Source: Bacteriovoracaceae bacterium (lineage in GTDB: Bacteria > Bdellovibrionota > Bacteriovoracia > Bacteriovoracales > Bacteriovoracaceae). Taken from it: a stretch of DNA of 41,106 nucleotides. The notes below the pieces were generated by a model. The model was not told the DNA's origin, did not search any database, and worked only from the letters and a program-made list of their open reading frames with translations. Both the position numbers and the translations under genes were made by a program. Location: NCBI GenBank assembly GCA_018649885.1, contig JABIHA010000038.1:1-41106 (forward strand), read 5' to 3'. Each line of letters opens with the position of its first letter. Position 1 is the stretch's first letter. Below are positions 5,818 to 41,066 of this stretch, piece after piece.

Positions 5818-5943
5818 CACTCTGCACCTTTAGCTCGACTTATCCGACCTATAAGTTTTCCTAATTTTTCACTGGCCAATTTGGTCACATATAGAACATG
5901 ATTGAGCCATAGGATCTTATACACACAATGGAGAGACCTACTT

Positions 5944-10619: not shown

Positions 10620-11247
10620 CCTCGCCATTTTAGCAAGTGGCTCTGGGACCAATCTTTTAAATTTAGTAGAAGTGGCGGAAAGACACAAAGATAGAGTGGA
10701 TGTGAAATGCCTCATTACAGATAAAATGGATGCAGGTTTTCTAGAGCACCCAATTTGCCACGATTATAAAAAAATTGTCGTAGAAAATTCTCCAAAACTT
10801 GGCGATAACCTGGATATTAGAAGAGCAAACCATGAAAAGGCAGTTCTAGAACACCTCTTCAATGAAGAGGTTGAGTGGATTTTACTGGCTGGGTATATGA
10901 GAATCCTAACTCCTAATTTTCTCAACTATTTCTACGATAAAAAATTGGACCAATATAAAATTATCAATATCCATCCCTCACTATTACCTAAATTTAAGGG
11001 TGTTAGAGCGATGGAAAAATCCTTTGCTTCCGGTGATAAATTGGCCGGTATTTCTGTTCACTTTGTTTCACCTGAAGTTGATGGTGGTGAGATCATTCAC
11101 AAAGAAGTCATCCCACGATTTAAGGGTGATAATTATTCAAATTTTTCTAAGCGTGCAAAAAAAGCTGAACATTTCGCTTATAAAAAGGTTTTTCTAGACC
11201 TGATCTATGGTCACGGAAAGTTCGCGCCTATAAGGGACACAATATGA
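10600..11247 (+). CDS. purN: Phosphoribosylglycinamide formyltransferase
   Basis: LASGSGTNL, LAGYMRIL, NIHPSLLPKFKG, SVHFV...DGG; start reset to ATG 10600. Confidence 0.96.
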   Translation: MTSHKINLAILASGSGTNLLNLVEVAERHKDRVDVKCLITDKMDAGFLEHPICHDYKKIVVENSPKLGDNLDIRRANHEKAVLEHLFNEEVEWILLAGYMRILTPNFLNYFYDKKLDQYKIINIHPSLLPKFKGVRAMEKSFASGDKLAGISVHFVSPEVDGGEIIHKEVIPRFKGDNYSNFSKRAKKAEHFAYKKVFLDLIYGHGKFAPIRDTI

Positions 11248-14200
11248 AAAGAATCGAAATCAGTGAAAAAGATCAAATATCTTTTACTCAAGGTACTATT
11301 AAAAGGGCCCACGATTTCTTTGAACTAGAAATAGAGGCAATCGAGAAAAGGCAAATTTACTGGATTGATGCTAGAAACTCAAAGTCAGCTCCAAGTGATA
11401 TTGTTGATCAAATTTCAAAAAATGTTTTATCCCATCCACTTGCAGAAAATACCTACCTTACAAAAGACTATTCAAAGGGCCAGTTTAACTACCTTGTTGA
11501 AGTCAATTTTTTACCTGGAGTGACAGACAATACTGCAGGCGGAGTGGTTGCGGCCACCCATTTGTATTGTGACTTAGATGATATCAAGGCACATACAGGA
11601 ACTCTCTACCTCATAAGATCAACTGCCAAGAAAGAACAAATTGAAAGTTTTGTTAGTCAATCCTTTGCCAACCCACTTCTTCAAAATATTCATATGCACT
11701 GTGAAAGTGATGAAATTGCGGCCTATGCCCCATTTGAGAATTTCCCTGATTTTGAATGCAAAGGCACTGATGAAAAACTCTATGAGCTCACTAATTTAAA
11801 CCAGGATATCGATTCCCTTTATAAACTTTCCCGAGAAAAACTTTGGAATTTCGAAATAGATGAACTCAAATATATTCAGTCATTTTACAAAAAAGAAGAT
11901 ATTTTAAAATCTCGATCAAAACTAGGACTTCCGGCAGAACCTACAGACGTAGAACTGGAAGTGATGGCACAAAGTTGGAGTGAGCACTGCAAACACAAAA
12001 TTTTCGCAGCTGATATTGAATATACTGAAAAGTCAGATAATTCATACCACTCAGTAAGTAATGCCACCATCGGTGGTCTTTTTCCTACTTATATAAAGGG
12101 TGCAACCAATCATCTGATTGAAAAAGAAGGTATTGATTTCACTAGGTCGCTTTTTGTGGACAATGCAGGTGTTGTTAATTTTGATGAAGGCGTGGATCTA
12201 TGTGTAAAAGTTGAAACCCATAACTCCCCTTCTGTGCTCGATCCCTACGGTGGCTCCTTAACAGGAATCCTAGGTGTCAACCGAGATATTTTAGGAACAG
12301 GAATGGGGGCGATCCCACTAGCAAATATTGATGTCTTTTGCTTTGGCAAACCTGAACACGATACCAGGCACTATCCTAAAACTGTAAAATCTACCAAGCA
12401 TATTTTAGAAGGCGTACACAAGGGAATCATTGACGGTGGAAACAAATCGGGAATCCCAACAATTAATGGAAGCTTTTCTTTTCACCGAAATTTTGGATCA
12501 AGACCTTTAATATTTTGCGGAACCATTGGGGCCATGAAACCTGGGGATCACAAAAAGATGATGAACGAAGGCGATAGAGTCTTTATGATCGGAGGCCTTG
12601 TAGGAAAAGACGGCATTCATGGGGCCACATTTAGCTCTAGAGAATTAGATCAAAGCTCCCCTCTTTCGGCAGTTCAAATCGGTGACCCTTTCACCCAAAG
12701 ACTAGTTTGGGATTTTTTAGAAAAGGCCCGCGAGCTCAAACTCTACAGCTCAATCACCGACAATGGTGCCGGTGGATTAAGCTCAAGTGTAGGAGAGATG
12801 GCCTGTGAAACTGGTGGAGCAGTAATCGATTTAAAAAAGGTAGGACTGAAATATCCAGGCCTAGCGCCTTATGAAATTATGATCTCAGAGTCCCAAGAGA
12901 GAATGACTCTTTCTGTACCCTCTGAAAATGTAGATGAATTTGAAAGTCTCGCTCAGTCTTTTGGGGTAGAGCACTGCAATCTTGGTGAATTTAATTCGTC
13001 GGGTCACCTCCATGTATGTTACGGCGATGAGACTGTGGCCTATCTCAACTTATCCTTTCTCCATGAGACACTTCCTAAATTGCAACTTAAGGCCAAGTGG
13101 TCTCCAGGTTGTCTGGGAGAAATAGACTTATCAAACACTGAAACAAAACAGACACCTTCTATTGATGAAGCTCTGCTTGAACTACTCGCTCATCCCAATA
13201 TCTGCTCAAAAGAGAGTTATGTTAGGCAATATGATTTTGAAGTGGGAGGCCTTAGTGCTGTCAAACCCTTTGGTGGAAAGTCTGAAAAAACGGCCAACAA
13301 TAGTGGAGTCATCTGGCTTGGCCCCATGGGTTCAAAAAACCAAAGTGCAGGTGTTTGCCTAGGACATGGAATTACTCATTCCCTTAGCTTTATCGATCCA
13401 TACTTAGCAGGAATCTACGCAGTTGATGAGGCCATGAGAAATATACTTTCCACAGGCGCCGATATCACCAAAGTTTGTATCACTGACAACTTCTGTATGC
13501 CCGATCCCCTGCCGGGAAAATCAAATGTATTGGCCGAAGAAAAATTGGGCTCTCTTGTGAGGTTATGTGAGGGTTTAAAAGATGCCGCCATTGTTTACAA
13601 GGCCCCACTAGTTAGTGGTAAAGATAGTATGAAAAATGACTTTATGGGTGAGTCAAACCAGGGCGAAATGGTAAGGGAGAGCATCCCCCCTACTCTCTTA
13701 GTCACTGCCATGGCCCATGTTAATGATATTGCAAAGACTCTTACATCAGACTTTAAAAATAGCTTTAGCTCCATTTATGCTATCGGAGAGGGTGATACCA
13801 CGCTACTGGGAAGTCACTATCAAAGTCTTTTTCAAGTATCAGATAATAGCATTCCAAAAGTTCCCGATTTAGAGAAAAATTACCAACTCTTCCGAGCTCT
13901 ATCGACGGCCACATCAAAGGCCCTTGTTGAGTCATGCCACGATATTTCAGATGGTGGGCTTCTGGTGACCATTTCAGAATCTATGATTGGTGGAGATTTG
14001 GGAGCTGTCATTGACTTAGATATAAGGATGCATGATTTGCGCTCCACATTTTTCAACGAAAGTCCTGGAAGATTTGTGGTAAGCGTAGCAAATGACCAAG
14101 TCAATGAGTTTGAAAATACCTTTAAAGGTCTGCCAGTTTTAAAAATTGGTCAAACTTCACTTACTCAAAAACTAGTTGTTAATAATAGCGGTAAACTTGT

Positions 14201-14261
14201 TTTTTCTACAGCACTAGATGATTTATCTAAGGCCTGGAGGAGTTCATTATGGCAAAAATAA
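11244..14261 (+). CDS. purL: FGAM synthase synthetase subunit with N-terminal PurS-like extension
   Basis: QSWSEHCKHK, KVETHNSPS, DGIHGATFSS, DNGAGGL, SESQERM, HDISDGG; N-terminal LPGVTDN/ANPLLQ segment; no glutaminase domain. Confidence 0.96.
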   Translation: MKRIEISEKDQISFTQGTIKRAHDFFELEIEAIEKRQIYWIDARNSKSAPSDIVDQISKNVLSHPLAENTYLTKDYSKGQFNYLVEVNFLPGVTDNTAGGVVAATHLYCDLDDIKAHTGTLYLIRSTAKKEQIESFVSQSFANPLLQNIHMHCESDEIAAYAPFENFPDFECKGTDEKLYELTNLNQDIDSLYKLSREKLWNFEIDELKYIQSFYKKEDILKSRSKLGLPAEPTDVELEVMAQSWSEHCKHKIFAADIEYTEKSDNSYHSVSNATIGGLFPTYIKGATNHLIEKEGIDFTRSLFVDNAGVVNFDEGVDLCVKVETHNSPSVLDPYGGSLTGILGVNRDILGTGMGAIPLANIDVFCFGKPEHDTRHYPKTVKSTKHILEGVHKGIIDGGNKSGIPTINGSFSFHRNFGSRPLIFCGTIGAMKPGDHKKMMNEGDRVFMIGGLVGKDGIHGATFSSRELDQSSPLSAVQIGDPFTQRLVWDFLEKARELKLYSSITDNGAGGLSSSVGEMACETGGAVIDLKKVGLKYPGLAPYEIMISESQERMTLSVPSENVDEFESLAQSFGVEHCNLGEFNSSGHLHVCYGDETVAYLNLSFLHETLPKLQLKAKWSPGCLGEIDLSNTETKQTPSIDEALLELLAHPNICSKESYVRQYDFEVGGLSAVKPFGGKSEKTANNSGVIWLGPMGSKNQSAGVCLGHGITHSLSFIDPYLAGIYAVDEAMRNILSTGADITKVCITDNFCMPDPLPGKSNVLAEEKLGSLVRLCEGLKDAAIVYKAPLVSGKDSMKNDFMGESNQGEMVRESIPPTLLVTAMAHVNDIAKTLTSDFKNSFSSIYAIGEGDTTLLGSHYQSLFQVSDNSIPKVPDLEKNYQLFRALSTATSKALVESCHDISDGGLLVTISESMIGGDLGAVIDLDIRMHDLRSTFFNESPGRFVVSVANDQVNEFENTFKGLPVLKIGQTSLTQKLVVNNSGKLVFSTALDDLSKAWRSSLWQK

Positions 14262-14992
14262 AAGCACTCGTTCTCTCAGGAATGGGTATTAACTGCCACA
14301 AAGAAACGGCAAGGGCCTTTGATATGGCCGGCGCTGAAACTTCAACAATTCCTCTTGGCATGCTCAAAGAGCACCAGCTCATTTTGAGAGATTACCAAAT
14401 ACTGGCCCTTCCAGGTGGGTTCTCCTATGGTGATGAAATTCAATCAGGAAGAGTACTGGCCTTATATCTTAAAAAATACTTGGGAGAATCTCTTTACCAG
14501 TTTGCTGAAAAAGGCCATCCCATACTTGGCATCTGCAATGGATTTCAAACTCTAGCAGAACTCGGTTTACTGTCCCCCAAAGGCCTTAGAGAAGATATTT
14601 CTTTAATAGACAACGACCACGGTAAATTTGAAGATAGGTGGGTTGATGTAAAAGTGACAGGTAACACCCATTGTCTGTGGACAAAAGGTATAGGAGTTGA
14701 TGGACCAGTCCATCTTCCCCTAAGAAATAAACAAGGAAGGCTTGTTGCAACTGACTCTTATAAAAAGCACCTCAGTGATAACTCTCAGCTTAAGGCCCTT
14801 ACCTATTCAACCTATGAAAATGGATCATATGAGCATATTGCAGGCCTTACAAATAAGGGTGGAAATATTCTAGGTCTGATGCCACATCCAGAAGCTTGTG
14901 TATTAAATTTACAAACTTGCAATAACCACCACCCCTTCAAAGAAGGGGCCGGGCTTAAGTTTTTCATAAATGCGGTTGAATACTTAAAATAA
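14249..14992 (+). CDS. purQ: FGAM synthase glutaminase subunit
   Basis: GINC, PGGFSYGD, GICNGFQ (Cys nucleophile), GLMPHPE (His-Glu). Confidence 0.95.
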   Translation: MAKIKALVLSGMGINCHKETARAFDMAGAETSTIPLGMLKEHQLILRDYQILALPGGFSYGDEIQSGRVLALYLKKYLGESLYQFAEKGHPILGICNGFQTLAELGLLSPKGLREDISLIDNDHGKFEDRWVDVKVTGNTHCLWTKGIGVDGPVHLPLRNKQGRLVATDSYKKHLSDNSQLKALTYSTYENGSYEHIAGLTNKGGNILGLMPHPEACVLNLQTCNNHHPFKEGAGLKFFINAVEYLK

Positions 14993-29818: not shown

Positions 29819-30406
29819 TTACTCAATGATAATATCTAAGTGATGTAAAAGCCTGAGGACATCTGAAGAAGAAAACTTAGCATGTTTTAATTTAGAGTAT
29901 CTGGGGTCAATTGAATAATCGCGGGCCCCACGAAAATCACAAGCAGTGAGGTCAGCTCCGCTAAAGAAGGCCTCATCAAGATTTGATTTTGTAAAATTGG
30001 CCCCTCTTAGAATTGATTGTGAAAAATCCACATGCTTAAGGGAGCAGTTTTCGAAAGTTGTAGAGTTGAGATCCATTTCTTGAAAAACACTGTGATCAAC
30101 TTTACAATTTTTAAAAACGAGAGACCTTGTAGAACTACACAGGGTAAAGTTCACACCAACTAATTTACAGTTAATAAAACTTACCTCAAGTAGTTGACTG
30201 CCTGTGAGTTGAGATAGGGAGAGATCACAATTTTCAAACACTACCTCTTCAAGCCTAAGACGCCTAAGACAGGTCCCATGAAAATTACAGTCAATAAATT
30301 TGCAGTCCACAAACTCTTTATCAATTAAGATATCACCTGGAAGAGAAATCCCTTTAAAGATTTCATCTTCATGGCTTTTATCATTTATTAGAATTTGTTT
30401 TTGCAA
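29819..30406 (-). CDS. Pentapeptide-repeat protein
   Basis: Continuous [A/C/S]-[D/N]-[L/F]-x-x repeats (CDLSL SQLTG, VDFSQ SILRG ANFTK SNLDE AFFSG ADLTA CDFRG). Confidence 0.92.
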   Translation of the reverse strand: MQKQILINDKSHEDEIFKGISLPGDILIDKEFVDCKFIDCNFHGTCLRRLRLEEVVFENCDLSLSQLTGSQLLEVSFINCKLVGVNFTLCSSTRSLVFKNCKVDHSVFQEMDLNSTTFENCSLKHVDFSQSILRGANFTKSNLDEAFFSGADLTACDFRGARDYSIDPRYSKLKHAKFSSSDVLRLLHHLDIIIE

Positions 30407-30539
30407 AAGATAATCCTTATTTCATTAAGATCACTAACGCTTATCATAAAAATGGTCAAAGAGTAACCAAAGTGGTCCCACATTGATTTTGTGGTGCTGC
30501 ATCAAGTGCAACAAATAGCTAAATTTACATTTTGGATTC

Positions 30540-30555
30540 TGGTCCTAAATTTGCA
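30540..30555 (+). promoter_or_regulatory. Putative sigma54 promoter
   Basis: TGGTCC-TAAAT-TTGCA with exact GG-N10-GC spacing. Confidence 0.5.
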
Positions 30556-30690
30556 CATGTTTACTCAAGGGTTAAAACGGGGGACAAATGAAACACACAA
30601 AATTCAAAACATAGTACAAAACATTAGCTCACTTATAATTTTTCAGAAAGCTCGGATTCGATATTATTCTCTTCTCTCCTTCTGAGCTTT

Positions 30691-30740
30691 AGGGGCCTAA
30701 TGTAGATCTTTTTTGCACTAGGTCCCCTTTATTCTTTTAT
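30691..30740 (+). terminator. Terminator-like hairpin
   Basis: AGGGGCCTA...TAGGTCCCCT imperfect stem followed by TTATTCTTTT on the + strand. Confidence 0.55.
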
Positions 30741-30749
30741 AAAAAACTT

Positions 30750-31328
30750 CTAGAAATACACTCCAAGTCCAGCGTAAGTACTCAAAAAATATCCTGTCAC
30801 ATTCATGTTTGAACCTGTATTTGCTTTTTCCCTATCCTCTAAAACATATTCACTTCTAGCGTCGACAAAAATTTCAAATGAGCCGATGGGAAAACCCAAT
30901 CCAAGAGTCAGCTGAAAAGCAGGTCGTACAGACTTCTCTCTGATGGCCCAGTCCGGAACTCTTACATTGGTAATGACCCAACTCATTCCCGGAGTAATTC
31001 TAAAAAGCCAAAATCTTATAGGAATATAAAGCCAATCCCAGGAGTAGCGGTCATAGGAAAAATTTCTGACATTGTTTTTGTCTTTGAACTGAGAAAATGT
31101 AAAATCGAAGCCAATACCAGCTGCACTTAGCCATTTTATTTTTGGAAGCTTAGCACCTCCAAAAAGTTTGATCCTTGCCATCCATCCATCAGTAAGCCTG
31201 CCATGGAGTTGTCCTGACCCCCAAGACGGTCCATAGGATCCCTCAACATGCGCTGTTAAGTCGGCCTTACTATGACCTGCCCCACACAATATCATTAAGC
31301 ATAGTGTTAAAAAGAAAACTTTTGCCAC
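30750..31328 (-). CDS. Small outer-membrane beta-barrel protein
   Basis: Signal peptide; about 8 amphipathic strands; C-terminal YAGLGVYF; AGG RBS before GTG. Confidence 0.7.
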   Translation of the reverse strand: MAKVFFLTLCLMILCGAGHSKADLTAHVEGSYGPSWGSGQLHGRLTDGWMARIKLFGGAKLPKIKWLSAAGIGFDFTFSQFKDKNNVRNFSYDRYSWDWLYIPIRFWLFRITPGMSWVITNVRVPDWAIREKSVRPAFQLTLGLGFPIGSFEIFVDARSEYVLEDREKANTGSNMNVTGYFLSTYAGLGVYF

Positions 31329-31415
31329 CTATTAATCCTTGGTATGTAGTGAGTTTAAACATTTACAAATATTTATGGGCCAGGCCATAATTTTTTGTCA
31401 TCAGGAGCTAGAAAA

Positions 31416-32336
31416 ATGAAATTAGGACTTATCTTATTTTTGATCATTCCATTTCATAGTCTTTTTGCCTCCGAAATGGACTCTATCACTCGTCGCTACG
31501 AAAGCATTTCAGACTCGCTACTTTTTTTCAATGATCACATGAACACAAAAATTGCCCACATCATAAATAAGGCCAATGAAGAAGACGTTTGCAGCCTGGA
31601 CACCTTAGACAAGTGGACAAGAAAAACTCTTACAGCAAGGGTTGATAAAGTTTTTATTTTCTCACCACTTCAACTGATTGCAGATAAATCAAACAAAATC
31701 GACAAACTTCACATCAAATTCAAAGATTCTATTTACAAATATGTCTCCTTCTTAGAATCCCCTGTTCTACAAACCTTTCCTCTTGCTCCTCTGATTAGTT
31801 TAAATGGCCATCTCATTGGAAGTGATAAATTTTCTCATTTTTTAAACTTGGGTTACGAATATTTCTGGAGAATGCAAAAGGGTGACGATTTAGAAAACGT
31901 TTTAAACTACTCTAAATTTCTTGAAAAATATTTTTGGGGTGGAATCAGCACAGGGATCATTTCTCACGCCGATCTTGTGGCCAACCTTCAAGGCCTTCGC
32001 TTTTTCGGAAGGTTCTTTTCTAAAGGCGTTGACCCTTTAACAGGAGATGACAACTCCCTCAGAGCTTACCTCGACTGCCGTGGAAATAAGTGGGTACAAC
32101 TTAGAGAATTTGACTTTTCTGAGTACGTTGATCAAGGCTGGGATGAAGGTCAAAATTGTAATGCCTACAGAACCAAGAGAATCACGAGGAAAGTCAAAAG
32201 GGCCATCAAAGAACTAGAGAGACGCTCAGGAAAAAACTACTCTTGTCCTATAGTCCCCACCACTTGCAAAGCACTAAAAATTAAGTACTCTAATGTAATG
32301 AAGCTTATCCTCTCTCCCGAATGTCTAGGCAGTTAA
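31416..32336 (+). CDS. Secreted hypothetical protein
   Basis: ATG 31416 with AGGAG RBS; signal peptide; IGSDKFSHF and SHADLVAN segments; multiple Cys. Confidence 0.75.
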   Translation: MKLGLILFLIIPFHSLFASEMDSITRRYESISDSLLFFNDHMNTKIAHIINKANEEDVCSLDTLDKWTRKTLTARVDKVFIFSPLQLIADKSNKIDKLHIKFKDSIYKYVSFLESPVLQTFPLAPLISLNGHLIGSDKFSHFLNLGYEYFWRMQKGDDLENVLNYSKFLEKYFWGGISTGIISHADLVANLQGLRFFGRFFSKGVDPLTGDDNSLRAYLDCRGNKWVQLREFDFSEYVDQGWDEGQNCNAYRTKRITRKVKRAIKELERRSGKNYSCPIVPTTCKALKIKYSNVMKLILSPECLGS

Positions 32337-32420
32337 ACCTACTTTTATTTTGTGCGAATGACTCTAAAGCCTATATATTGACTCACTCCCTGTGGTCATA
32401 GGGATCTATCAGCAGTTGTG

Positions 32421-33563
32421 CTACCTAAATTTTAATATGAGAGAGCCATAAACATCATTTTCTATTGGTAGGCCTTCGGTTTGACCGATCAAATCTCCAC
32501 GCAGTGCCATTCCGGCGCTCAGGGAAAAGTACAAAGTTGTACCCTCTGACAATTTGGCCACCTGAAAGTCTAACCTGGCATGGGTTTCAACCACCCAATA
32601 ATCTAAATCCGTAAGAGAGTAAACAAACCAAATATCAAACATTCCCCACAGATTCTCAAAAAGTTTTACTTTTGAGAGTAGTGGAACTTTTCCTTCGAGC
32701 TTGACTCGATAGGAAAGAATCAGATTGTCATCTTGTGCAGTATCATCAGCGTGAACTATCGTTCGTCTTCCCAGTGCTGCACTTATAGAAACTTCTTCTG
32801 GATTAAAATGCGTTAGGGCATCAAACTCAACTCCCCCAAGCTCAGTAAACTGAAAAGCAACATTTTCATCGAGATCTCTTTTGAGGCTTTCACTTACAAA
32901 TATTGCCCACTTTTGATTTTTAAGTATAACTTTATAGATGATACTTTGGTTAATCTCAGCATCTGCAATTTGAGAAGATCCATCAAACTCAGCGCCTATA
33001 GTGCCAGAAATTGAGTGATCACCCCATCTTTTTGAAAACTTTGTTTTTACTTTGGCATTGAAATCAGATTCAGGTACTTTTTTTCCTGTTAAATTACCAT
33101 CTTCATCCACTTCATCAACCAAAGTGACATCACTGTCAACTGAGGCCTGTAAATCAAAGGTGAAAGGGTTTTGGTCTACCTCAGGAGGGGCTACCGCCAC
33201 AACCATAGGAATTCCCTTAAAGGCCATAATATGCACTCGAATATTATCTCGAAGTTGGATCTCTCCATCCGCATCCACAACCTCCTGGCATAATTCAGTT
33301 TTATATCCCAAAATATAATAGGCCAATGTTTCATAGTCATTATCATGATCAGGAAATCTTTCGGCCATCTCGGTTGTTAACTTATAGACTTTTTGCCAAT
33401 CATCACAATTTGAAATTGAAAGATACTCTGTTCCTGGAGCAGCTTCAGCAATTCTTGAAGTTGATTTCTTATACTGTGATTTGGTTTCTACGAAAGGGCC
33501 TGAAAAGGCAGCTGAAATTTGAAAAACCAATAGTGATAATACTACCAAAACGTAGCTGTTCAT
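32421..33563 (-). CDS. Outer-membrane protein: N-terminal soluble domain plus DUF481-like beta-barrel
   Basis: GAGGAGGA RBS; signal peptide; C-terminal about 240 aa of alternating strands ending YGSLILKFR. Confidence 0.6.
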   Translation of the reverse strand: MNSYVLVVLSLLVFQISAAFSGPFVETKSQYKKSTSRIAEAAPGTEYLSISNCDDWQKVYKLTTEMAERFPDHDNDYETLAYYILGYKTELCQEVVDADGEIQLRDNIRVHIMAFKGIPMVVAVAPPEVDQNPFTFDLQASVDSDVTLVDEVDEDGNLTGKKVPESDFNAKVKTKFSKRWGDHSISGTIGAEFDGSSQIADAEINQSIIYKVILKNQKWAIFVSESLKRDLDENVAFQFTELGGVEFDALTHFNPEEVSISAALGRRTIVHADDTAQDDNLILSYRVKLEGKVPLLSKVKLFENLWGMFDIWFVYSLTDLDYWVVETHARLDFQVAKLSEGTTLYFSLSAGMALRGDLIGQTEGLPIENDVYGSLILKFR

Positions 33564-33728
33564 GAAAATCCTCCTCAGAATTTATGTATAATAGTGCATA
33601 GATTCCCTAACGCGCAGCACAGCCCATGTCAACAACTCCCTCCCAAATCGTTCCAATCACTTAAGGCCTGTGTTTATTAAGAAATTTTTACCGAGTTTAT
33701 TGATAGGATGTTACACCAGTCAGGAAAA

Positions 33729-33761
33729 GGATTTTCACTGTATAAATTACAAATAAAATCC
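33729..33761. promoter_or_regulatory. Interrupted palindrome, candidate activator binding site
   Basis: GGATTTT-cac-TGTA-taaat-TACA-aat-AAAATCC, about 85-115 bp upstream of a sigma54 element. Confidence 0.4.
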
Positions 33762-33843
33762 ATTCACTTTTCACTAACTTTTATCCAGTTTTTCAAATTG
33801 TTCAATTCAACTGACGTATTTCAAAGCTTTATATCAATTTTTT

Positions 33844-33859
33844 TGGCACCTCACTTGCT
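33844..33859 (+). promoter_or_regulatory. Sigma54 promoter of the subtilisin gene
   Basis: TGGCAC-CTCAC-TTGCT is a perfect match to TGGCAC-N5-TTGCW. Confidence 0.8.
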
Positions 33860-33901
33860 TATTACTTGGGAAGTAAATCACTACCCCGAGAGGAGAATTT
33901 C

Positions 33902-35032
33902 ATGTCAACAAAACTTATTTGTGCTGTTATGGCCTTCACTGTTTGTTCTAGTTTGTTTGCAAAAAGATTTGTCGTTAGAGGTCATGACCTTGAAGCTATA
34001 AAAAATGAGATTAATCATGAGAGGGGAAATCTTCAACACCAATTAAAGAGACATCAGGCCGTTATTGCCAATTTTGATGATGCAACAGCAGGACGGTTAA
34101 GGGCCAAATTTGGCGCCAATATAAAAATCGAAGAGGATATCCTCGTTCACATTAATGCCAAACCACAAAACCCAGGAGGTGGGAAAAAAGGTGGTGGAGA
34201 CACCCCAAGTGCACAACCACCACAAGAAACACCGTGGGGTATTTCACACATTGGGGCCCCTAGTGCTTTTTCAATCACTAGAGGTTACGGAGCCATTGTA
34301 TGCATTGTAGATACTGGAATTGAGGAAAATCATCCCGATCTCGTTGACAATGTTATAGGTGGAGAAAATTTTGTGGTTAAAAAAGGCAGAATCGATCCTC
34401 TAGGGTTTAATGATGACAATGGACACGGTACCCATGTAGCTGGGACAATAGCAGCACTTGATAATGAAATTGGAGTTATAGGTGTTGCACCCAATGCCTC
34501 AATATTTGCTGTTAAAGCACTAGATAAGAGAGGTTCTGGATATACTTCAGCTATCGCTGATGGTGTCACAAGTTGTGTGGCCAATGGTGCCCATGTGATT
34601 AACTTGTCTCTTGGAAGCTCATCAGGTAGTTCTATCTTACACGACGCCATTATTGATGCAGTAAATGCGGGAGTTCATGTGATAGCAGCTGCCGGTAATG
34701 ATGGATCAAATGCAGTCTCCTACCCAGCTGCCTTTGCAGAAACCATTGCAGTTTCTGCCATCGACTCTTCAAATAACTTGGCCTATTTTTCAAACTACGG
34801 ATCACAAATCAATTACGCAGCACCCGGCGTTGGTATTAAATCGACGGTCCCAGGCGGCTCATATGATGTATTTAATGGAACTTCTATGGCCACTCCACAC
34901 GTTGTAGGAGTAGTGGCATTAATGGTTTCTTCAGGAGAGTCCCAACTAGGCTCTACTGATATTGGCCTCACTCCAGATAAACAAGGAAATGGACTTATAA
35001 GCGCAGACCTTACTGTGAACCCTCTCCCATAA
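33902..35032 (+). CDS. Secreted S8 subtilisin-like serine protease
   Basis: Signal peptide, I9-like propeptide, catalytic triad VDTG / HGTHVAG / GTSMATPHV, oxyanion AAGN; ATG 33902 with GAGGAG RBS. Confidence 0.96.
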   Translation: MSTKLICAVMAFTVCSSLFAKRFVVRGHDLEAIKNEINHERGNLQHQLKRHQAVIANFDDATAGRLRAKFGANIKIEEDILVHINAKPQNPGGGKKGGGDTPSAQPPQETPWGISHIGAPSAFSITRGYGAIVCIVDTGIEENHPDLVDNVIGGENFVVKKGRIDPLGFNDDNGHGTHVAGTIAALDNEIGVIGVAPNASIFAVKALDKRGSGYTSAIADGVTSCVANGAHVINLSLGSSSGSSILHDAIIDAVNAGVHVIAAAGNDGSNAVSYPAAFAETIAVSAIDSSNNLAYFSNYGSQINYAAPGVGIKSTVPGGSYDVFNGTSMATPHVVGVVALMVSSGESQLGSTDIGLTPDKQGNGLISADLTVNPLP

Positions 35033-35039
35033 AATAATT

Positions 35040-35076
35040 GAGAGTGCTCTCATCAAATTTGATAGCGCTCTCTTTT
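35040..35076 (+). terminator. Probable terminator after the subtilisin gene
   Basis: GAGAGTGCT...AGCGCTCTC stem (one G-U pair) with an inner ATCA/TGAT pairing, followed by TTTT. Confidence 0.6.
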
Positions 35077-35336
35077 AATAATCCTCGTAATATAAATTAA
35101 ATGTAAGAAGTTAGTATTTTTCCACAAACTCATTTCAAACCAGTATTTTTTCCTTAGATAAAAATAAACCAAATAAAATTGGGTAGTTACAGCTCAATTG
35201 GAACTCATTGTTTCAGCAGTCATTCGCGAAGCGTCCAGCAAAAATAAGACTTAACTACTCGGGATGGCCCATCATATAATTTCTCCCTAATTGTGAAACA
35301 AAATGGATTTAAAATAGCTCATGGGAGGGCAACACG

Positions 35337-37535
35337 ATGAAATTCTTATGCATACTAATGCTCACACTCTCTTTTTCGTTGATGGCCGCGGCACCAGATA
35401 TGACCACGCTCAAGACAGCAGGAAGAATTATCCACTCCGAAGTGGCCGGCTTCGCAACTGATCACGCTTGGGAGAAAACCACCAAAGTGATGAAAGATTT
35501 AAAAATCTTTGATGCCCAGGTGAATAGAATGATGCAAATTCTTTGCTCTCCTGAAACCAATAAATCGGTTCTTCTTGTGGGTGAGGCCAATGATACCTAT
35601 AAATATTTCTTTTCTAGACTTGCTATGATGGATCCACTATCTGGATGTACAAAATTTTCTCACGTTGATTTTGAAGTCAGCAAGCTCCAAGGTTATATGT
35701 ACGTGGGCACCACTGAAAAGAAGTGGCAAGACCTCATTGAGAAAACAAGCTATGACAAAGATGTAGTTTTATATTTTAACAACCTGAGAAGATTGATCGG
35801 CATTGGAACAAGCTCTAATAAATCGGTCGGCATTGAATCAACTCTCGCAACAGCGATCGCTAGTGGAAAACTTAAGGTCGCCTCATATATGAACAAATAT
35901 GATTACAATGAATTGATCAGATCACGTCATGCTTACGTCCTCGACGCCTTTCAAGAGGTGATTCAAATCCAAGATATCACTATGGCCCAGGTAGACCTGC
36001 TAGTGGATAAGTACCTTGCTGTTCATGGACCCCACTTAAAGCTTTCTGATGAAACAGCATTTTATATGTATAAGAAAATTGAATATTTTCAGCCCAATAT
36101 TGAAGAGCCACAAAGGACCATGGATATTTTAAGAACAATCATGGACCGCTTTAAAATGAAAAATGAGTATTTTGCCTCCACGGCCAGAACTGATAAGCCT
36201 TATAAGGCCAATGAAAATAAAACTTTTGTCGTAGAAAAAGCAGGAGCCGTTTCATTAAAATTATACTTTGAATACTTTCAAACTGATTATTCAGATACAC
36301 TTACAATTTATGATGGAAACACAGGTACTGTTTTAGATAAATTCCAAGGCAGATTAGGAAAATTTGCTTCTAAAGAATACACCACTAGTAAACTAAAGCT
36401 GGTCTTTAAATCAAATGGGTCTTATCAAGGCGATGGATTTAAAATTGCCAATGTCATGGCCCGTGTACAACCTACAGGTTACGACATTACAAAAGAAGAT
36501 GTCAGAATGGCGATCTTCAAAAGAGTTCAAGTTCCAAGATGGATTATTGATAGAGATTACTCTCTAGTGAGAAACCTTAGAACGCTTCTTGATAAAGATG
36601 TTGTGGGAGTTCTTGAGGGTAAGAAAGCTGTCATTAGATCTGTCAGAATTGGATATGTCAGTGGCAGAACCGATGAAAAGCCAGCAGGAACAATTCTATT
36701 TGTTGGCCCAACTGGTACAGGGAAAAGTTATATCGCCAAAAAAGCTGCCGAGTATATGCAGATGAAAACCATTACCATGGACATGACTCAATATGCGACA
36801 TCAGAAAGTTTTGACCGCTTTGTCACTACAATGTCCAACTACCTTGTACTCTATCCATACGCCGTATACCTATTTGAAGAAATTGATAAGGCCAACCCCA
36901 GAGTTCTCGATCGTCTTTATTTTATGATGGATGAAGGTATTTTTTACGATAAAAACCAAAGGCCTCTATTTGCTAGAGGAGCGATGCTCTACATGACCAC
37001 AAATGCCGGTCACAAATTAATTATCAAAGAAAAGGATAATCCAAAACTTAAAACCTTAGTCCACCAAGAATTGCAAAAATACTATAGACCAAGTTTTTTA
37101 AATCGATTTGATAGCATTCCGATTTTCAAACCTTTCTCTCCAGCAGAGTACAAGCAACTTGCAAAAATCATGGTGACTAAGAAACTTCAAAAATTAAAAG
37201 AGCACTATGACTGGAAACTTGATGTGGACGATGCCACCATGGATTTTATTGCCAAAAATGGTGGAAGTGATCTCTACGGAGCAAGACCTATGGAGAGACT
37301 CATTGACAGCGTTATTGCTATGGGAATTTCAGAGTACCAAATTATGGTTGGAACTATTGCATACGGTGCACAGATTAGTATTTCTAAGCTTGCAAGAGGT
37401 GCTACTGCTTTTAAAGTCAGTGTTAGCGGAAGATCAAGTGTCGAGTTTGAGGTAGACCTGGACAATAATTCAGGACTGCACAGCTACACTGATCCAATCA
37501 TTTTAAGCTTGCTTGCCAGTGTTAAAGTCTTATAA
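35337..37535 (+). CDS. Atypical ClpA/ClpB-family AAA+ ATPase with signal peptide and inserted CUB-like domain
   Basis: NBD2: LFVGPTGTGKS, MDMTQY, LFEEIDKA, MTTNAG, RPSFLNRFD, GARPMER; NBD1-like region degenerate; CUB-like segment at about 36190-36450; GGGAGG RBS. Confidence 0.85.
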   Translation: MKFLCILMLTLSFSLMAAAPDMTTLKTAGRIIHSEVAGFATDHAWEKTTKVMKDLKIFDAQVNRMMQILCSPETNKSVLLVGEANDTYKYFFSRLAMMDPLSGCTKFSHVDFEVSKLQGYMYVGTTEKKWQDLIEKTSYDKDVVLYFNNLRRLIGIGTSSNKSVGIESTLATAIASGKLKVASYMNKYDYNELIRSRHAYVLDAFQEVIQIQDITMAQVDLLVDKYLAVHGPHLKLSDETAFYMYKKIEYFQPNIEEPQRTMDILRTIMDRFKMKNEYFASTARTDKPYKANENKTFVVEKAGAVSLKLYFEYFQTDYSDTLTIYDGNTGTVLDKFQGRLGKFASKEYTTSKLKLVFKSNGSYQGDGFKIANVMARVQPTGYDITKEDVRMAIFKRVQVPRWIIDRDYSLVRNLRTLLDKDVVGVLEGKKAVIRSVRIGYVSGRTDEKPAGTILFVGPTGTGKSYIAKKAAEYMQMKTITMDMTQYATSESFDRFVTTMSNYLVLYPYAVYLFEEIDKANPRVLDRLYFMMDEGIFYDKNQRPLFARGAMLYMTTNAGHKLIIKEKDNPKLKTLVHQELQKYYRPSFLNRFDSIPIFKPFSPAEYKQLAKIMVTKKLQKLKEHYDWKLDVDDATMDFIAKNGGSDLYGARPMERLIDSVIAMGISEYQIMVGTIAYGAQISISKLARGATAFKVSVSGRSSVEFEVDLDNNSGLHSYTDPIILSLLASVKVL

Positions 37536-37557
37536 TTTTAAAACTATACTTTTGAAT

Positions 37558-37584
37558 AAGAGGGCCTTGTGCCCTCTTTTTTTT
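37558..37584 (+). terminator. Rho-independent terminator
   Basis: AAGAGGGC-cttgt-GCCCTCTT followed by a T-run. Confidence 0.8.
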
Positions 37585-37593
37585 GGAGAGAAA

Positions 37594-37878
37594 ATGAAAA
37601 AACTGATGATACTACTGCTTCTTTCGGCCTGTGCCTCAAACCCAGGCAAGCTTAGTGACGCCGGCGAAAAAGTTCGCACCCTTCCCAGCTCAAAAAATAC
37701 TGGCTGCAAGGTTGTAGACAAAGTAATTGGCGAGAGTGAGAAAGGCTCAGAAGAGCTTGCCACAAATCACGCTAGGAACTTAACGGCCGATGCCGATGGC
37801 GATGCCATGTATATTGACCAAGTGGTACCCAATGGAGCGATGATGAGAGTTTTCGCCACTGCTTATAAGTGCCGGTAA
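37594..37878 (+). CDS. Small lipoprotein, DUF4156-like
   Basis: ATG 37594 with GGAGAG RBS; lipobox LSAC; GC..V..V.G...A.N.ARN..A..DGD...AYKC pattern. Confidence 0.75.
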   Translation: MKKLMILLLLSACASNPGKLSDAGEKVRTLPSSKNTGCKVVDKVIGESEKGSEELATNHARNLTADADGDAMYIDQVVPNGAMMRVFATAYKCR

Positions 37879-37922
37879 CTAGGTAAGTTCCGGCACCATT
37901 TCGTAAGTCTTACCTTCCCCCC

Positions 37923-37951
37923 TTGACGGTAAGTAAGTGTTCACTTACTAT
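37923..37951 (+). promoter_or_regulatory. Sigma70 promoter with overlapping TetR operator
   Basis: TTGACG-N17-TACTAT; perfect palindrome AGTAAGTG-tt-CACTTACT (37932-37949) spans the spacer and -10 box. Confidence 0.8.
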
Positions 37952-37980
37952 CCTCTAAACCCTATGCTGGGGGAGGTTGT

Positions 37981-38712
37981 ATGAGTGAGAAAAGACTAAC
38001 TAAATCTCAAAGAAAAGAAGAAATTTTAAAGGCCGCCATCCCACTTTTCGCCCAAAAAGGCCTGGGTGCCACAACCAAAGAGTTGGCCTGTAGGGCCTGC
38101 GTCTCAGAAGCATTACTGTACAAACACTTCCCCTCAAAGGCCGCCCTATTCGAGGAAATAAAAAGTAGCTGCTGCAAAAAGGCCAGGGAGAGCGGACATA
38201 TCATCACGGCACTTCCCTCTTCAAGTCAAGTTTTGATCATGGCAATCTACGGTCTTGTTCGCTTTGTTCTTTACGGCGCCACTGGAGATGAGACCCATAA
38301 CAATACCAAAAGAATTTTGGCCCACGGCCTCTTACAAGATAGGCAATTTATTAAAAATTTCTTCGAAACAAATTTTGAAGACTTTATGCCCAAACTTGAA
38401 GACTGCATGAAAGTGGCCATTGAAGCTGGCGAGATGATTGCCCCTTCAGAGAATTTAAAACTCTCCCTCTGGCTGTCACATCACCTTTGCTTTGGAGTTT
38501 CCATCATCATTTTAAACCAAAATGAAGACCTAGAAGTGATTGACTATGGAATAGATCCACAAGGGCTTCAAATTGAGATATCAAAATTTATCATGCGAGG
38601 CCTAGGCCTTAAACAAGAAATCATTGAACAATACTTTATGCCTGAAGAGTTTAACCTTATTTTAGAAAACCCTAGCACTCTTCTGGATTCGATTAAAATG
38701 GAGAATTCATGA
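37981..38712 (+). CDS. TetR/AcrR-family transcriptional regulator
   Basis: RKEEILKAAIPLFAQKG..ATTKELA..ACVSEALLYKHFPSK HTH. Confidence 0.93.
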   Translation: MSEKRLTKSQRKEEILKAAIPLFAQKGLGATTKELACRACVSEALLYKHFPSKAALFEEIKSSCCKKARESGHIITALPSSSQVLIMAIYGLVRFVLYGATGDETHNNTKRILAHGLLQDRQFIKNFFETNFEDFMPKLEDCMKVAIEAGEMIAPSENLKLSLWLSHHLCFGVSIIILNQNEDLEVIDYGIDPQGLQIEISKFIMRGLGLKQEIIEQYFMPEEFNLILENPSTLLDSIKMENS

Positions 38713-41066
38713 AATTAATTAACCGTGCAATCTTTAGCATGACTGGTCTAATTATGAATAGGCCAAAAACCCTACTAGTTATTGGTCTTTTAGGTCTACT
38801 AAGCTTTACCCTTGGCCTGACTAAATTAAAAACAAACTTTAGCTATAGAATATGGTTCAACACTGATTCACAGGCACTTGTGGATTATGATAAATTTGAA
38901 TCAGTATTTGGAAATGACGAAAACTCAGTCCTGGCCTTACACAACCCAAGTGGAGTTTTCAACAAGAAGACGGCGCAACTGATCCAAAATATCACCAATG
39001 ACTTTTGGAAAATCAAAGATGTCATAAGGGTCAACTCACTCAGTAATTTCAACTGGACCCACGGCGAGGATGACGATATTTTGGTGGACCCCTTTTTCCC
39101 GGAGTCCCATGAATTAGATGATCAGTTTCTATCGCAAAGAAAGAAAATTGCTCTATCGCATAAGTCCCTTAGGGGTTACTTCGTTTCAAAAGATGCAAAT
39201 ACCGCACTATTTTACGTCAAGCTCAGACCATTTTTCAAAAAATCACCTGACTATGACAGGCTAATGAAGGACTTAACCGCCGTAGTCAACAAATACAAAC
39301 CAGACCACCAGGAAATGCAGTTTTATTTAACTGGAAGCACCCCCATTAACGCCAGCTTCAAAGAAAGTACAAGAGAAGATATGAAAACTCTTATCCCCTT
39401 AGTGCTTCTAGTGGTCACAACTTTTCTGGCCTTTAGCCTTCGAAACCCACTTGCAGTAGTACTGTCTCTATTTACCATCGGGGTGGCCATCATCTACACC
39501 ATGGGCTCTGGCGGGTATTTAGGACTTGAAATTAATAATCTCTCGGCCACGGTGCCTCAGTTTATGATTGCTATTTCAATCGCTGTGGTGGTCCACCTAC
39601 TTGTCACCTACTACCTTTTTACAGCAAAGGGTTACTCAAAAGATGAGGCCATCAAAAAATCCTTACAAAAAAATATAAAACCGACTCTTCTCACAAGCTT
39701 ATCAACTGCTTTTGGGTTTTTTAGTTTTTCATCCGCTGGGATTCCGGCTATCTCTGAAATGGGCGTTCTAGCCGGAGTGGGAACACTTTTGACATGGATT
39801 GCCACCTACCTTGTAATGGCGCCTTTGATGGTTTTACTCCCCATTGGAAAATGGAAACCCACAAAAGTTAAAAAAGATGAGTCCAGTAGAAGTGAGAAAT
39901 TTGTTAATTTCATCGATCGTAACAAAAAGGGAATTATTGCCATAACCATATTAATGGCCATCTTGGATATCTCTTTGGCAGTAAAAGTTGCAGTGAATTC
40001 CGACCCACTAGAATATTTTGACAAAAAATTTCCAGTCTCTATTGCCAATGATTTTATGGAAGCTAATGTTGGTGGATCTATGAGTATTGAAACTGTGGTC
40101 GATTCAGGCTCTTCTGAGGGTATAAAAGACCCAGACTTTTTGGCAAAGGTTGAGAGTCTGCAACATTGGCTTGATCAAAACTCATTTGTCTCAAAAACTA
40201 TCTCCATTGTGGATATACTAAAAGACACCAACAAATCATTAAATGGCGGTGATCAAAATTTCTACCGATTGCCCACTGAGAGAAAACAAGTTGCCGAGCA
40301 ACTCTTTTTATATTCCATGGGTCTTCCCCAAGGAATGGATATTAGCAATCAAATGACCATTGGAAATGACAAAATGAGAGTCACGGCGATGGTGACCATC
40401 CACGACTCCATGAGAATTCTTAAATTTGCTGATGAGATTGAAAATAAGGCAACTGAGCTAGGACTTAGTGCCAAGGTCAATGGGAAGAACTATCTATGGC
40501 AAACCATTACAGGTCCCATTATAAAGTCCTTTGGTAAGTCTCTTACTTGGGCGATAGCTCTAATTAGTTTGCTCTTGATCTTTGGCCTGGGCTCGGTAAA
40601 ACTGGGGCTTCTAGCAATGATCCCCAATACACTCCCTATAATATTTGGAGGTGGGGCCTTATTTGTATTGGGTAAATATCTCGATATAGGTACTGTGATC
40701 GTAGCGGCCATTACCCTAGGAATAGCTGTTGACGACACCATTCACTTTCTCAATCACTTTAAAAATGCCTTAATTGAGGGGAAATCTCCAAAAGAAGCGA
40801 TCACCGAAATATTCTCCCAAACGGCCATGGCACTTATAGTGACAACGTTAGTGCTAGTGGCATCTTTTGGAACTTTCTATTTTGGCACCTTTGTTCCCAA
40901 TCAAAACTTCGGAATTATGGTGGCGATTATTTTAACTTTTGCTCTGATTTGTGATTTAATTTTCCTGCCAGCTCTACTTCTTTGTTTAAAAAGAGAATTT
41001 TTCATTGAAAAAGAAATCTATCAGGTTTCATGCCCGACTGAGAAGATTAAAAATGCGTACACTTAG
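38709..41066 (+). CDS. MMPL/RND-family transporter (paralogue of 26576-28897)
   Basis: Same 2x(1+5 TM) topology; RIWF, FGNDE, GLPQGMD, GIAVDDTIHF; ATGA overlap with tetR. Confidence 0.92.
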   Translation: MKLINRAIFSMTGLIMNRPKTLLVIGLLGLLSFTLGLTKLKTNFSYRIWFNTDSQALVDYDKFESVFGNDENSVLALHNPSGVFNKKTAQLIQNITNDFWKIKDVIRVNSLSNFNWTHGEDDDILVDPFFPESHELDDQFLSQRKKIALSHKSLRGYFVSKDANTALFYVKLRPFFKKSPDYDRLMKDLTAVVNKYKPDHQEMQFYLTGSTPINASFKESTREDMKTLIPLVLLVVTTFLAFSLRNPLAVVLSLFTIGVAIIYTMGSGGYLGLEINNLSATVPQFMIAISIAVVVHLLVTYYLFTAKGYSKDEAIKKSLQKNIKPTLLTSLSTAFGFFSFSSAGIPAISEMGVLAGVGTLLTWIATYLVMAPLMVLLPIGKWKPTKVKKDESSRSEKFVNFIDRNKKGIIAITILMAILDISLAVKVAVNSDPLEYFDKKFPVSIANDFMEANVGGSMSIETVVDSGSSEGIKDPDFLAKVESLQHWLDQNSFVSKTISIVDILKDTNKSLNGGDQNFYRLPTERKQVAEQLFLYSMGLPQGMDISNQMTIGNDKMRVTAMVTIHDSMRILKFADEIENKATELGLSAKVNGKNYLWQTITGPIIKSFGKSLTWAIALISLLLIFGLGSVKLGLLAMIPNTLPIIFGGGALFVLGKYLDIGTVIVAAITLGIAVDDTIHFLNHFKNALIEGKSPKEAITEIFSQTAMALIVTTLVLVASFGTFYFGTFVPNQNFGIMVAIILTFALICDLIFLPALLLCLKREFFIEKEIYQVSCPTEKIKNAYT

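Follow-up and report, generated by a model that had tools for sequence, protein, structure and literature searches.

The stretch of DNA considered here (the window) is 41,106 nucleotides long and spans positions 1 to 41,106 of contig JABIHA010000038.1, from the assembly GCA_018649885.1 of a Bacteriovoracaceae bacterium. The host is a marine Halobacteriovorax-like bacterium whose genome is labelled G000. An open reading frame (ORF) on the forward strand (35337..37535) starts with ATG and encodes 732 amino acids (aa) plus a stop; it is the gene of an apparently exported Clp/Hsp100-like ATPase. An earlier note had described the protein as a signal-bearing ATPase with a double AAA+ scaffold and proposed that it acts where ATP becomes available outside the cell, for instance in or next to prey. 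Comparison of its relatives shows a discrete, unnamed family, a new variation on the Hsp100 scaffold that is predicted to be exported and to have a single live ATP site. With D1 and D2 denoting the first and second AAA+ modules, NBD a nucleotide-binding domain and pLDDT the predicted local distance difference test score, the gene is divided as follows.

35337..35390 (+), Sec-type signal peptide, residues 1-~18 (K2, hydrophobic core, Ala-rich end); the cleavage site is approximate, and the property, not the sequence, is conserved in homologues
35394..36152 (+), mature N-terminus PDxxxL..G.II and ClpA/B D1-like pseudo-ATPase module, residues 20-272, from alignment and fold
36153..36467 (+), CUB-like beta-sandwich at the place of the ClpB M-domain, residues 273-377, from Pfam, the AlphaFold2 model and alignment
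36474..37130 (+), catalytic AAA+ module of the ClpB NBD2/AAA_2 type, residues 380-598, from Pfam, PDB match and conservation
37143..37373 (+), ClpB D2-small domain with GAR sensor-2, residues 603-679 (PF10431, 41.7 bits; G648, R650 and P651 invariant)
37374..37532 (+), C-terminal beta strands (679-705) and low-confidence tail, residues 680-732 (pLDDT <50 at 712-719)

Domain architecture and active sites

The three profiles that the earlier note had named for a check all match above their Pfam cut-offs. AAA_2 (PF07724) covers residues 448-594 (8.5e-22), PF10431 matches the D2-small domain, and CUB (PF00431) is found at residues 273-370 with 24.8 bits against a cut-off of 21.4. The CUB region is all-beta in the AlphaFold2 model (residues 275-377) and PF00431 is precomputed for most homologues; by alignment the domain is absent from the Verrucomicrobiota forms of the family and from L046. 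Clp_N (PF02861) gives no match at E<=1, as expected from the absence of Clp N-domain repeats in the earlier description, whereas the canonical Clp matches all carry PF02861. The Torsin profile (PF06309) reaches 20.4 bits, below its gathering score of 27. The NCBIfam equivalogs also stay below their cut-offs (ClpA 150.5 against 993 bits, ClpB 140.8 against 1232, ClpV 96 against 885), and the ClpA and ClpB matches are confined to the C-terminal half of the protein.

The best PDB sequence match is T. thermophilus ClpB (1qvr, 9.3e-40) over residues 382-683, with ClpA also matching over D2, and a weak second stretch aligns residues 59-242 to residues 176-362 of ClpB, which lie in D1. The AlphaFold2 model built from 51 family sequences has a pLDDT of 91.8 and a predicted template modelling score (pTM) of 0.77. 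Its top Foldseek matches in the PDB are double-ring chains of ClpC and ClpA (E ~1e-35 over ~650-720 columns), followed by ClpB at ~1e-32 to 1e-30. At the level of the predicted structure the two-module Clp scaffold is confirmed, and with it the ClpA/B layout of two NBDs that had been read from the letters. The label of a double AAA+ protein is right for the fold and wrong for catalysis: two modules are present, but with the Walker motifs of D1 lost a single ATPase site is left.

The Walker A motif of D1 reads GEANDTYK, with a shortened P-loop, where proteins named ClpB or ClpA have GEPGTGKT, and its Walker B has NN in place of DE. The loss of Walker A and B is family-wide. By these motifs the first AAA+ module is a pseudo-ATPase, and the single predicted live ATPase site is in the second. 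The motifs of D2 comprise Walker A (GPTGTGKS), Walker B (LFEEID), sensor-1 (TTN), the sequence RPSFLNR and the GAR of sensor-2. Residues G457/T459/G460/G462/K463, E514/E515, N556, R584/R590 and R650 are invariant in 51 sequences whose mean column identity is 46%, and the same catalytic residues of D2 are kept in the Verrucomicrobiota forms. The alignment shows the putative ATP site of the second module to be under strong conservation. At the pore-loop position of D1, Tyr-Val-Gly (122-124) is kept in most Bdellovibrionota members and Leu is found in the Verrucomicrobiota forms. Pore loop 1 of D2 (GYVG) is gone through a 13-residue deletion in 8/8 aligned family members; the same alignment retains it in canonical Clp proteins and in a 792-aa protein encoded on contig C140 of G000.

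The architecture, comprising a dead D1, a CUB domain at the M-domain position and a D2 devoid of its pore loop, is undescribed. No family model or paper was found for it in Pfam, NCBIfam or the literature, in keeping with the earlier note, which had recognised no described family. A literature search that did not cover subscription journals returned no paper on exported or periplasmic Hsp100/AAA+ proteins.

Export signal and distribution of the family

The first residues, MKFLCILMLTLSFSLMAAAPD, are arranged like the n, h and c regions of a signal peptide: a basic residue precedes a short hydrophobic core, and the end is rich in Ala. In place of SignalP, signal peptides were called by a crude heuristic of our own, which is positive for 50/54 family proteins and for 2/66 canonical Clp proteins of the same search. 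The four negative family proteins (4/54) are N-terminally truncated or fragments. Under a liberal choice of start, 55/55 full-length family frames in the genome loci are positive; applied to canonical Clp loci, the same choice gives 2/8 false positives, whose starts lie 115 and 296 residues inside the frame. The signal sequences differ among the members, and what recurs in the N-termini of the homologues is charge before a short core and AxA-like ends after it. The elements of a Sec-exported protein, charge in the n-region, a hydrophobic core of 8-12 residues and small residues at -3/-1 or a lipobox, are thus shared by the family. The signal peptide first noticed in one protein is in this way a family-wide property. 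The motif PD[LM]xxL..SGxII opens the mature part in homologues and begins at residues 20-21 (PD) of the window protein. Met22 fills the Leu position of this conserved motif and is therefore not the start, so that the downstream start weighed in the earlier note falls away, and the homologues keep the hydrophobic peptide. Export by the Tat pathway was dropped as a candidate on account of the N-terminus, which carries no twin-arginine (RR) motif.

At least three members (P0017, P0019, P0027 and a paralogue on contig C17 of G000, all judged by eye) carry a lipobox-like sequence whose Cys precedes a linker, and these few look like lipoproteins. Further along, Cys70 and Cys104 are invariant and are the sole Cys after residue 30 in 38/50 members. 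They are replaced together in the Verrucomicrobiota forms, and a pair that is invariant and lost jointly would fit a structural disulfide. The conserved Cys pair and the CUB domain suggest a life outside the cytoplasm. Conventional ClpA-like and ClpB-like genes are likewise present in G000; they have two Walker A motifs and lack a signal.

A protein search returns 53 further clusters at E<=4e-158 with 40-61% identity, after which the matches drop to canonical Clp at 1e-35. In their sources the family members are named only 'AAA family ATPase', 'ClpA' or 'hypothetical'. In a FastTree tree the family stands on a long, fully supported branch separate from canonical Clp, and the window protein clusters with Halobacteriovoraceae orthologues. 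A scan of species-representative genomes yields 45 family loci, 24 of the Bdellovibrionota type and 21 from marine Verrucomicrobiota. The former are labelled Halobacteriovorax, Bacteriovoracia, Bdellovibrionales, Pseudobdellovibrio and Oligoflexales, with a few carrying other labels. The Verrucomicrobiota form is shorter (~617 aa) and devoid of the CUB domain, and in the same tree these proteins are one tight clade nested in the Bdellovibrionota diversity. The features that they have in common count as a single event because they form this one clade, which probably descends from one transfer. The taxonomic range, which the earlier note had left to a survey, comprises the Bdellovibrionota and one marine Verrucomicrobiota clade. 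Within the window's phylum the family is sparse, being found in 9/251 genomes and 7/143 genera of an even sample, and among 40 close relatives one other genome carries it. One locus (L011) comes from a metagenome-assembled genome titled Sulfitobacter; its family protein is near-identical to that of Halobacteriovorax (L012) and has the same neighbourhood, and the contig is probably mis-binned or mislabelled.

Neighbouring genes and candidate partners

In the Bdellovibrionota-type loci the recurrent neighbour is M2, an orphan helical protein of ~212 aa. It is encoded beside the ATPase gene in 18/22 assessable loci, mostly upstream on the same strand and in most with gaps of 2-49 nt; in L020 the order is reversed and M2 lies downstream. 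Apart from this pair, the genes around the different loci are unrelated. In the sample of 251 genomes M2 is present in 8/9 genomes with the family and in 2/242 others. It is rare: a set of 1.84 billion proteins yields 67 representatives. M2 matches no Pfam or NCBIfam family, the ESM Atlas gives no usable feature match and structure rows at TM<=0.42 only, and longer proteins with an M2-like C-terminal part (P0180-P0187 and an ORF of G215) have no Pfam family. The helices of M2 carry many invariant Arg/Lys and polar residues.

M2 also keeps company with other exported proteins. In a sample of 401 genomes, 13/14 M2 loci lie within ~2 kb of a gene for a signal-peptide-bearing ATP-binding protein. 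These neighbours are of the Clp-like, PF00004 AAA and PPDK_N kinds and occur in five distinct gene contexts; the counts for the Clp-like family are inflated by shared ancestry. Two M2 copies are found in G183, one of them 1 nt from two exported PF00004 AAA proteins and the other flanked by two exported PPDK_N proteins of ~975 aa. In G018 and G318, M2 occurs with an exported PPDK_N protein and exported leucine-rich repeat (LRR) proteins. At these loci (L143 in G018, L172 in G318) it lies inside arrays of tandem paralogous secreted LRR proteins, with six copies of ~530-580 aa in G018, and a conserved exported protein of ~140 aa is found near M2, together with the PPDK_N protein, in both. These arrays might represent another extracytoplasmic system that shares M2.

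In 19/21 Verrucomicrobiota loci the gene that comes after the ATPase on the same strand encodes a homologue of TLC, the family of NTT-type nucleotide exchangers (PF03219 above cut-off); the remaining 2/21 stop at a contig edge. The gap is 26-36 nt in the three loci measured (L030, L032 and L033). A reverse metagenome scan with the TLC profile recovers the same ATPase-TLC pair in 30 loci. PF03219 scores 33.6 bits with the Verrucomicrobiota form and 58.1 bits with the form in G000. The relatives of the TLC profile in the PDB are only ADP,ATP carrier protein 1 entries of two sequences, the better of which (2e-10) is named chloroplastic, and NCBIfam TIGR00769 gives 53 bits against a cut-off of 387. 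Other TLC loci of the Bdellovibrionota have no AAA or M2 neighbour. In L065-L097 and L145-L151, TLC/NTT genes occur without the ATPase, often beside genes for exported YkuD L,D-transpeptidases, Omp85-family and TPR proteins; a ~570-aa lipoprotein without family is also found there, and some of these loci pair TLC with an NTT-HEAT fusion.

The single M2 gene of G000 and its TLC gene are located together on contig C140 (L061, locus 4468-14664) in a tight, operon-like same-strand cluster that also encodes two more exported Clp-like ATPases. Its order is an exported AAA+ protein (907 aa), an exported vWA protein, an exported ClpA/B-like ATPase (792 aa), an exported trypsin-like protease, M2, an exported RCC1-repeat protein and TLC. 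The 792-aa ATPase has both Walker A/B sets and the GYVG pore loop. The composition of C140 matches that of the window (GC 39.8% vs 39.5%, tetranucleotide r 0.90). The cluster looks like an exported ClpA-plus-protease analogue with its own putative transporter. Elsewhere in G000, three PPDK_N (ATP-grasp) proteins of 737-951 aa have signal-like N-termini (L178, L179 and L181 on contigs C7, C76 and C132), and a canonical PPDK without signal is encoded on C99. The ATPase paralogue on C17 (L062, 6174-9805) adjoins a Peptidase_S8 gene, as the window gene does, in the opposite gene order. The two S8 peptidases are 33% identical and have hydrophobic, signal-like N-termini. An S8 peptidase was rejected as a conserved partner of the family, since the pairing is found in G000 only, apart from one distant S8 gene 5 kb away in L026.

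Around the window gene itself the following features are found.

33866..35032 (+), subtilase (Peptidase_S8) with a hydrophobic N-terminus, upstream context gene
35251..35280 (+), promoter-like site TTAACT-18-TATAAT, 57 nt upstream of the ATG; with 10/12 matches the best in 33500-38100
35323..35329 (+), Shine-Dalgarno-like GGGAGGG, 7 nt ahead of the ATG, read from the sequence
37558..37584 (+), intrinsic-terminator-like hairpin and T-run, with an 8-bp stem of which 5 pairs are GC, 23 nt past the stop
37594..37878 (+), small protein with a lipobox-like N-terminus, MKKLMILLLLSAC, and no family match, downstream context gene

GGGAGGG agrees with the strong ribosome-binding site of the earlier description. 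With a promoter-like site upstream and a canonical hairpin with T-run (37558-37578) downstream, the ATPase gene looks like its own transcription unit. The region holds 11 promoter-like sites against a chance mean of 10.4, so the site at 35251-35280 is a hint only and the terminator alone carries weight. The stretch is present in marine metagenomes from several studies, and a metatranscriptome (X18) holds five short contigs that are 100% identical to it, two of them inside the gene (36510-36660 and 36746-36896). These contigs are too few to show transcription, its start or its strand, and DNA carry-over is possible. The 121-aa ORF listed downstream starts within the terminator region of the ATPase gene (37513-37593); its plausible start is the ATG at 37594, after the hairpin. 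No relative of the resulting lipobox-like protein was found beside other members of the ATPase family. The parts of the window at 29819-33563 and 37981-41066 hold mostly signal-bearing proteins without family (192, 313 and 380 aa) and a pentapeptide-repeat protein. Further downstream lie a TetR regulator and then an MMPL/RND-type transporter whose start overlaps the regulator stop.

Proposed ATP supply outside the cytoplasm and related systems

The reading favoured here, to which we give slightly less than an even chance, is that of an extracytoplasmic ATP-driven remodeller whose ATP is supplied by the cell via M2 and/or a TLC exchanger. After removal of the signal the mature protein would consist of the nucleotide-dead D1, the CUB domain, the catalytic D2 and D2-small. 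It would assemble as a ring outside the cytoplasm, in the periplasm or envelope, where ATP hydrolysis by D2 would remodel a protein client in a mode closer to torsin-like or ClpB-like remodelling than to ClpP-coupled degradation. The nucleotide would be self-supplied through a dedicated inner-membrane partner, namely an NTT/TLC-type ATP/ADP exchanger in the Verrucomicrobiota and M2, as conduit, activator or anchor, in the Bdellovibrionota. The logic of supply would be that of torsin or BiP with the ATP importer of the endoplasmic reticulum (ER), or of CLPB in the mitochondrial intermembrane space. It is the TLC pairing in the Verrucomicrobiota, taken together with the occurrence of M2 beside other exported ATP-binding enzymes, that points to self-supply.

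Several observations weigh against this reading. The window ATPase gene has neither M2 nor TLC adjacent to it, and the family genomes G263 and G411 show neither M2 nor a strong TLC match. For the Bdellovibrionota, TLC was rejected as a general partner, since its subfamily occurs in 1/9 family genomes (G000 only). Even in the Verrucomicrobiota the link to TLC is weaker than the counts, because these forms are one clade and so one evolutionary event. In the metagenomes 49/80 loci of the TLC subfamily have no AAA neighbour, and those sampled adjoin L,D-transpeptidase, Omp85 or TPR genes. By these neighbourhoods the subfamily is linked to the envelope, and its substrate may not be ATP because many of its loci adjoin envelope genes and not ATPases. 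As regards M2, clearly hydrophobic helices number only 2-3, the model is moderate (pLDDT 72) and the fold is unrecognised: VIA-align against 48,161 chains peaks at Z 7.3, a usual value among helical bundles. Processive threading by the ATPase is doubtful because D2 has no pore loop and the D1 loop of the Verrucomicrobiota forms has Leu and not Tyr. Finally, ATP in the periplasm would leak via porins and be attacked by periplasmic nucleotidases.

A wider proposal, possible though on balance doubtful, is that an ATP economy exists beyond the cytoplasmic membrane in some diderm bacteria, with a dedicated inner-membrane protein delivering ATP to Sec-exported ATP-dependent enzymes. M2 would then be a new kind of small nucleotide conduit in most Bdellovibrionota carriers, and the NTT/TLC exchanger of the Verrucomicrobiota would run in the export direction. 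The clients would be the Clp-like ATPase, other exported AAA+ proteins and exported PPDK_N-type enzymes. G000 would have seven of them, four Clp-like and three PPDK_N.

The main alternative on the source of ATP is the one raised by the earlier note. Here a predator would export or secrete the ATPase, which would be active only with foreign ATP in or beside invaded or lysing prey and would unfold prey proteins for secreted proteases encoded nearby. The host does cluster with the Halobacteriovoraceae and the Bdellovibrionota hold most family members; both G000 paralogues adjoin subtilases with hydrophobic signal-like N-termini, on C140 an exported ClpA/B-like ATPase occurs together with an exported trypsin-like protease, and no transporter adjoins the window gene. 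However, a marine Verrucomicrobiota clade has the family fixed as well, in an operon-like pair with a TLC homologue, the pairing with S8 is not conserved beyond G000, and neither the pairing with M2 nor the company that M2 keeps with other exported ATP-binding enzymes is explained. Since the family is rare in the Bdellovibrionota (9/251 genomes), it is not part of the core predatory kit. As a general explanation prey ATP is not supported, given the TLC pair and the M2 pairing; for predators it could still hold, and as a whole it is unlikely. Less likely again is an exported, ATP-dependent protein to which M2 and TLC supply no nucleotide: M2 would serve several exported enzymes as anchor, assembly factor or activator (cf. 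LAP1/LULL1 for torsin), TLC would carry another envelope-related solute and ATP would come from elsewhere. No transporter-like fold matches M2, which is hydrophobic only in part and occurs among exported LRR proteins in G018 and G318, and other members of the TLC subfamily adjoin L,D-transpeptidase, Omp85 and TPR genes, all of which would fit. Yet the neighbours of M2 are three unrelated ATP-binding kinds with no common mature N-terminal motif by eye, and because they are unrelated a common cofactor explains them better than a common docking site. The invariant Arg/Lys and polar residues along the M2 helices also count against this alternative, and an activator lending an Arg is not needed because the family keeps R584 and R590.

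Two further alternatives concern the protein itself. It might be exported and turn over no ATP, with extracellular or periplasmic nucleotide bound as a signal or ring stabiliser, and serve as an ATP-independent holdase or adaptor via the CUB domain and the D1-like part. The pseudo-ATPase state of D1 and the missing pore loop of D2 would fit, and periplasmic domains that sense extracellular ATP have been published, according to the part of the source available (PMC12625894). However, the residues needed for hydrolysis as opposed to binding, namely the Glu of Walker B, the Asn of sensor-1 and the Arg at the finger position, do not vary among the 51 sequences, which makes this quite improbable. 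That the protein is not exported at all, its N-terminal stretch being an uncleaved anchor with a cytoplasmic bulk or an artefact of the start codon, is very improbable. The heuristic is crude, with its false positives of 2/66 and, under liberal starts, 2/8, but the cores are short and preceded by positive charge, the ends are AxA-like, some members have lipobox-like variants and the conserved mature motif begins right after the predicted cleavage region. The conserved Cys pair and the CUB domain argue in the same direction, as do the ordinary ClpA-like and ClpB-like genes of G000, which have no such peptide.

Systems such as Lol, Lpt, Bam and TonB are usually explained on the premise of an ATP-free periplasm. 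Conserved exported Hsp100-type ATPases and the membrane genes tied to them make this premise testable with a small gene set. If self-supply is confirmed, bacteria would have an equivalent both of the ER with its torsin, BiP and ATP importer and of the mitochondrial intermembrane space with CLPB, and a new nucleotide transporter family might be revealed. If the ATP came from prey instead, a predator would be using an unfoldase outside its own cell, and the biology would be new either way.

Among known systems the class I Hsp100/Clp proteins are the closest in build. The window protein has their two stacked AAA+ modules and D2-small domain, with the Walker A/B, sensor-1, Arg and sensor-2 elements of D2 present. 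It differs from them in its Sec signal, the lack of Clp_N, the loss of the D1 Walker motifs, the deletion of the D2 pore loop and the presence of a CUB domain in place of the M-domain. It also has no IGF/IGL-type loop between TTNAG and RPSFLNR, the IGF/IGL motif being the ClpP-interaction loop. A different likeness is offered by the torsins, signal-bearing relatives of ClpB D2 in a compartment that is topologically like the periplasm. They have no aromatic pore loops, cysteines matter for their function, and the ATP that they need is brought into the ER by an antiporter. Torsin-1A structures match at ~1e-4, and the window sequence is much closer to ClpB and ClpA. The torsins are single-module proteins that lack an arginine finger of their own and borrow one from LAP1/LULL1, whereas the window family has two modules and keeps R584 and R590. 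The earlier note had named torsins as the best-known signal-bearing relatives; they are not the sole ones, as Plasmodium HSP101 and the CLPB homologue of the intermembrane space are among the PDB matches. HSP101, the ClpB-type protein of the eukaryotic PTEX translocon (6e10 and 6e11, ~2e-21), is exported by the parasite to the vacuole, outside the parasite cytoplasm. It is a full ClpB-like protein with both modules, pore loops and N-domain, and works with the membrane pore EXP2.

On the side of supply, the characterised NTTs import host ATP, while the TLC partner is a distant member with many relatives beside envelope genes and not ATPases. NTT genes are widespread in free-living bacteria, where their roles are left open, and the part of the source available makes no mention of export by NTTs (PMC5381601). 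Human CLPB/SKD3 is an Hsp100 D2-type disaggregase of the mitochondrial intermembrane space, according to the part of the source available (PMC9934407). This compartment is homologous to the periplasm, and CLPB/SKD3 structures match the window protein at 9e-12 to 9e-10; unlike the window protein, CLPB/SKD3 has a single AAA+ module and ankyrin repeats. ATP reaches it in the intermembrane space via mitochondrial carriers and porin.

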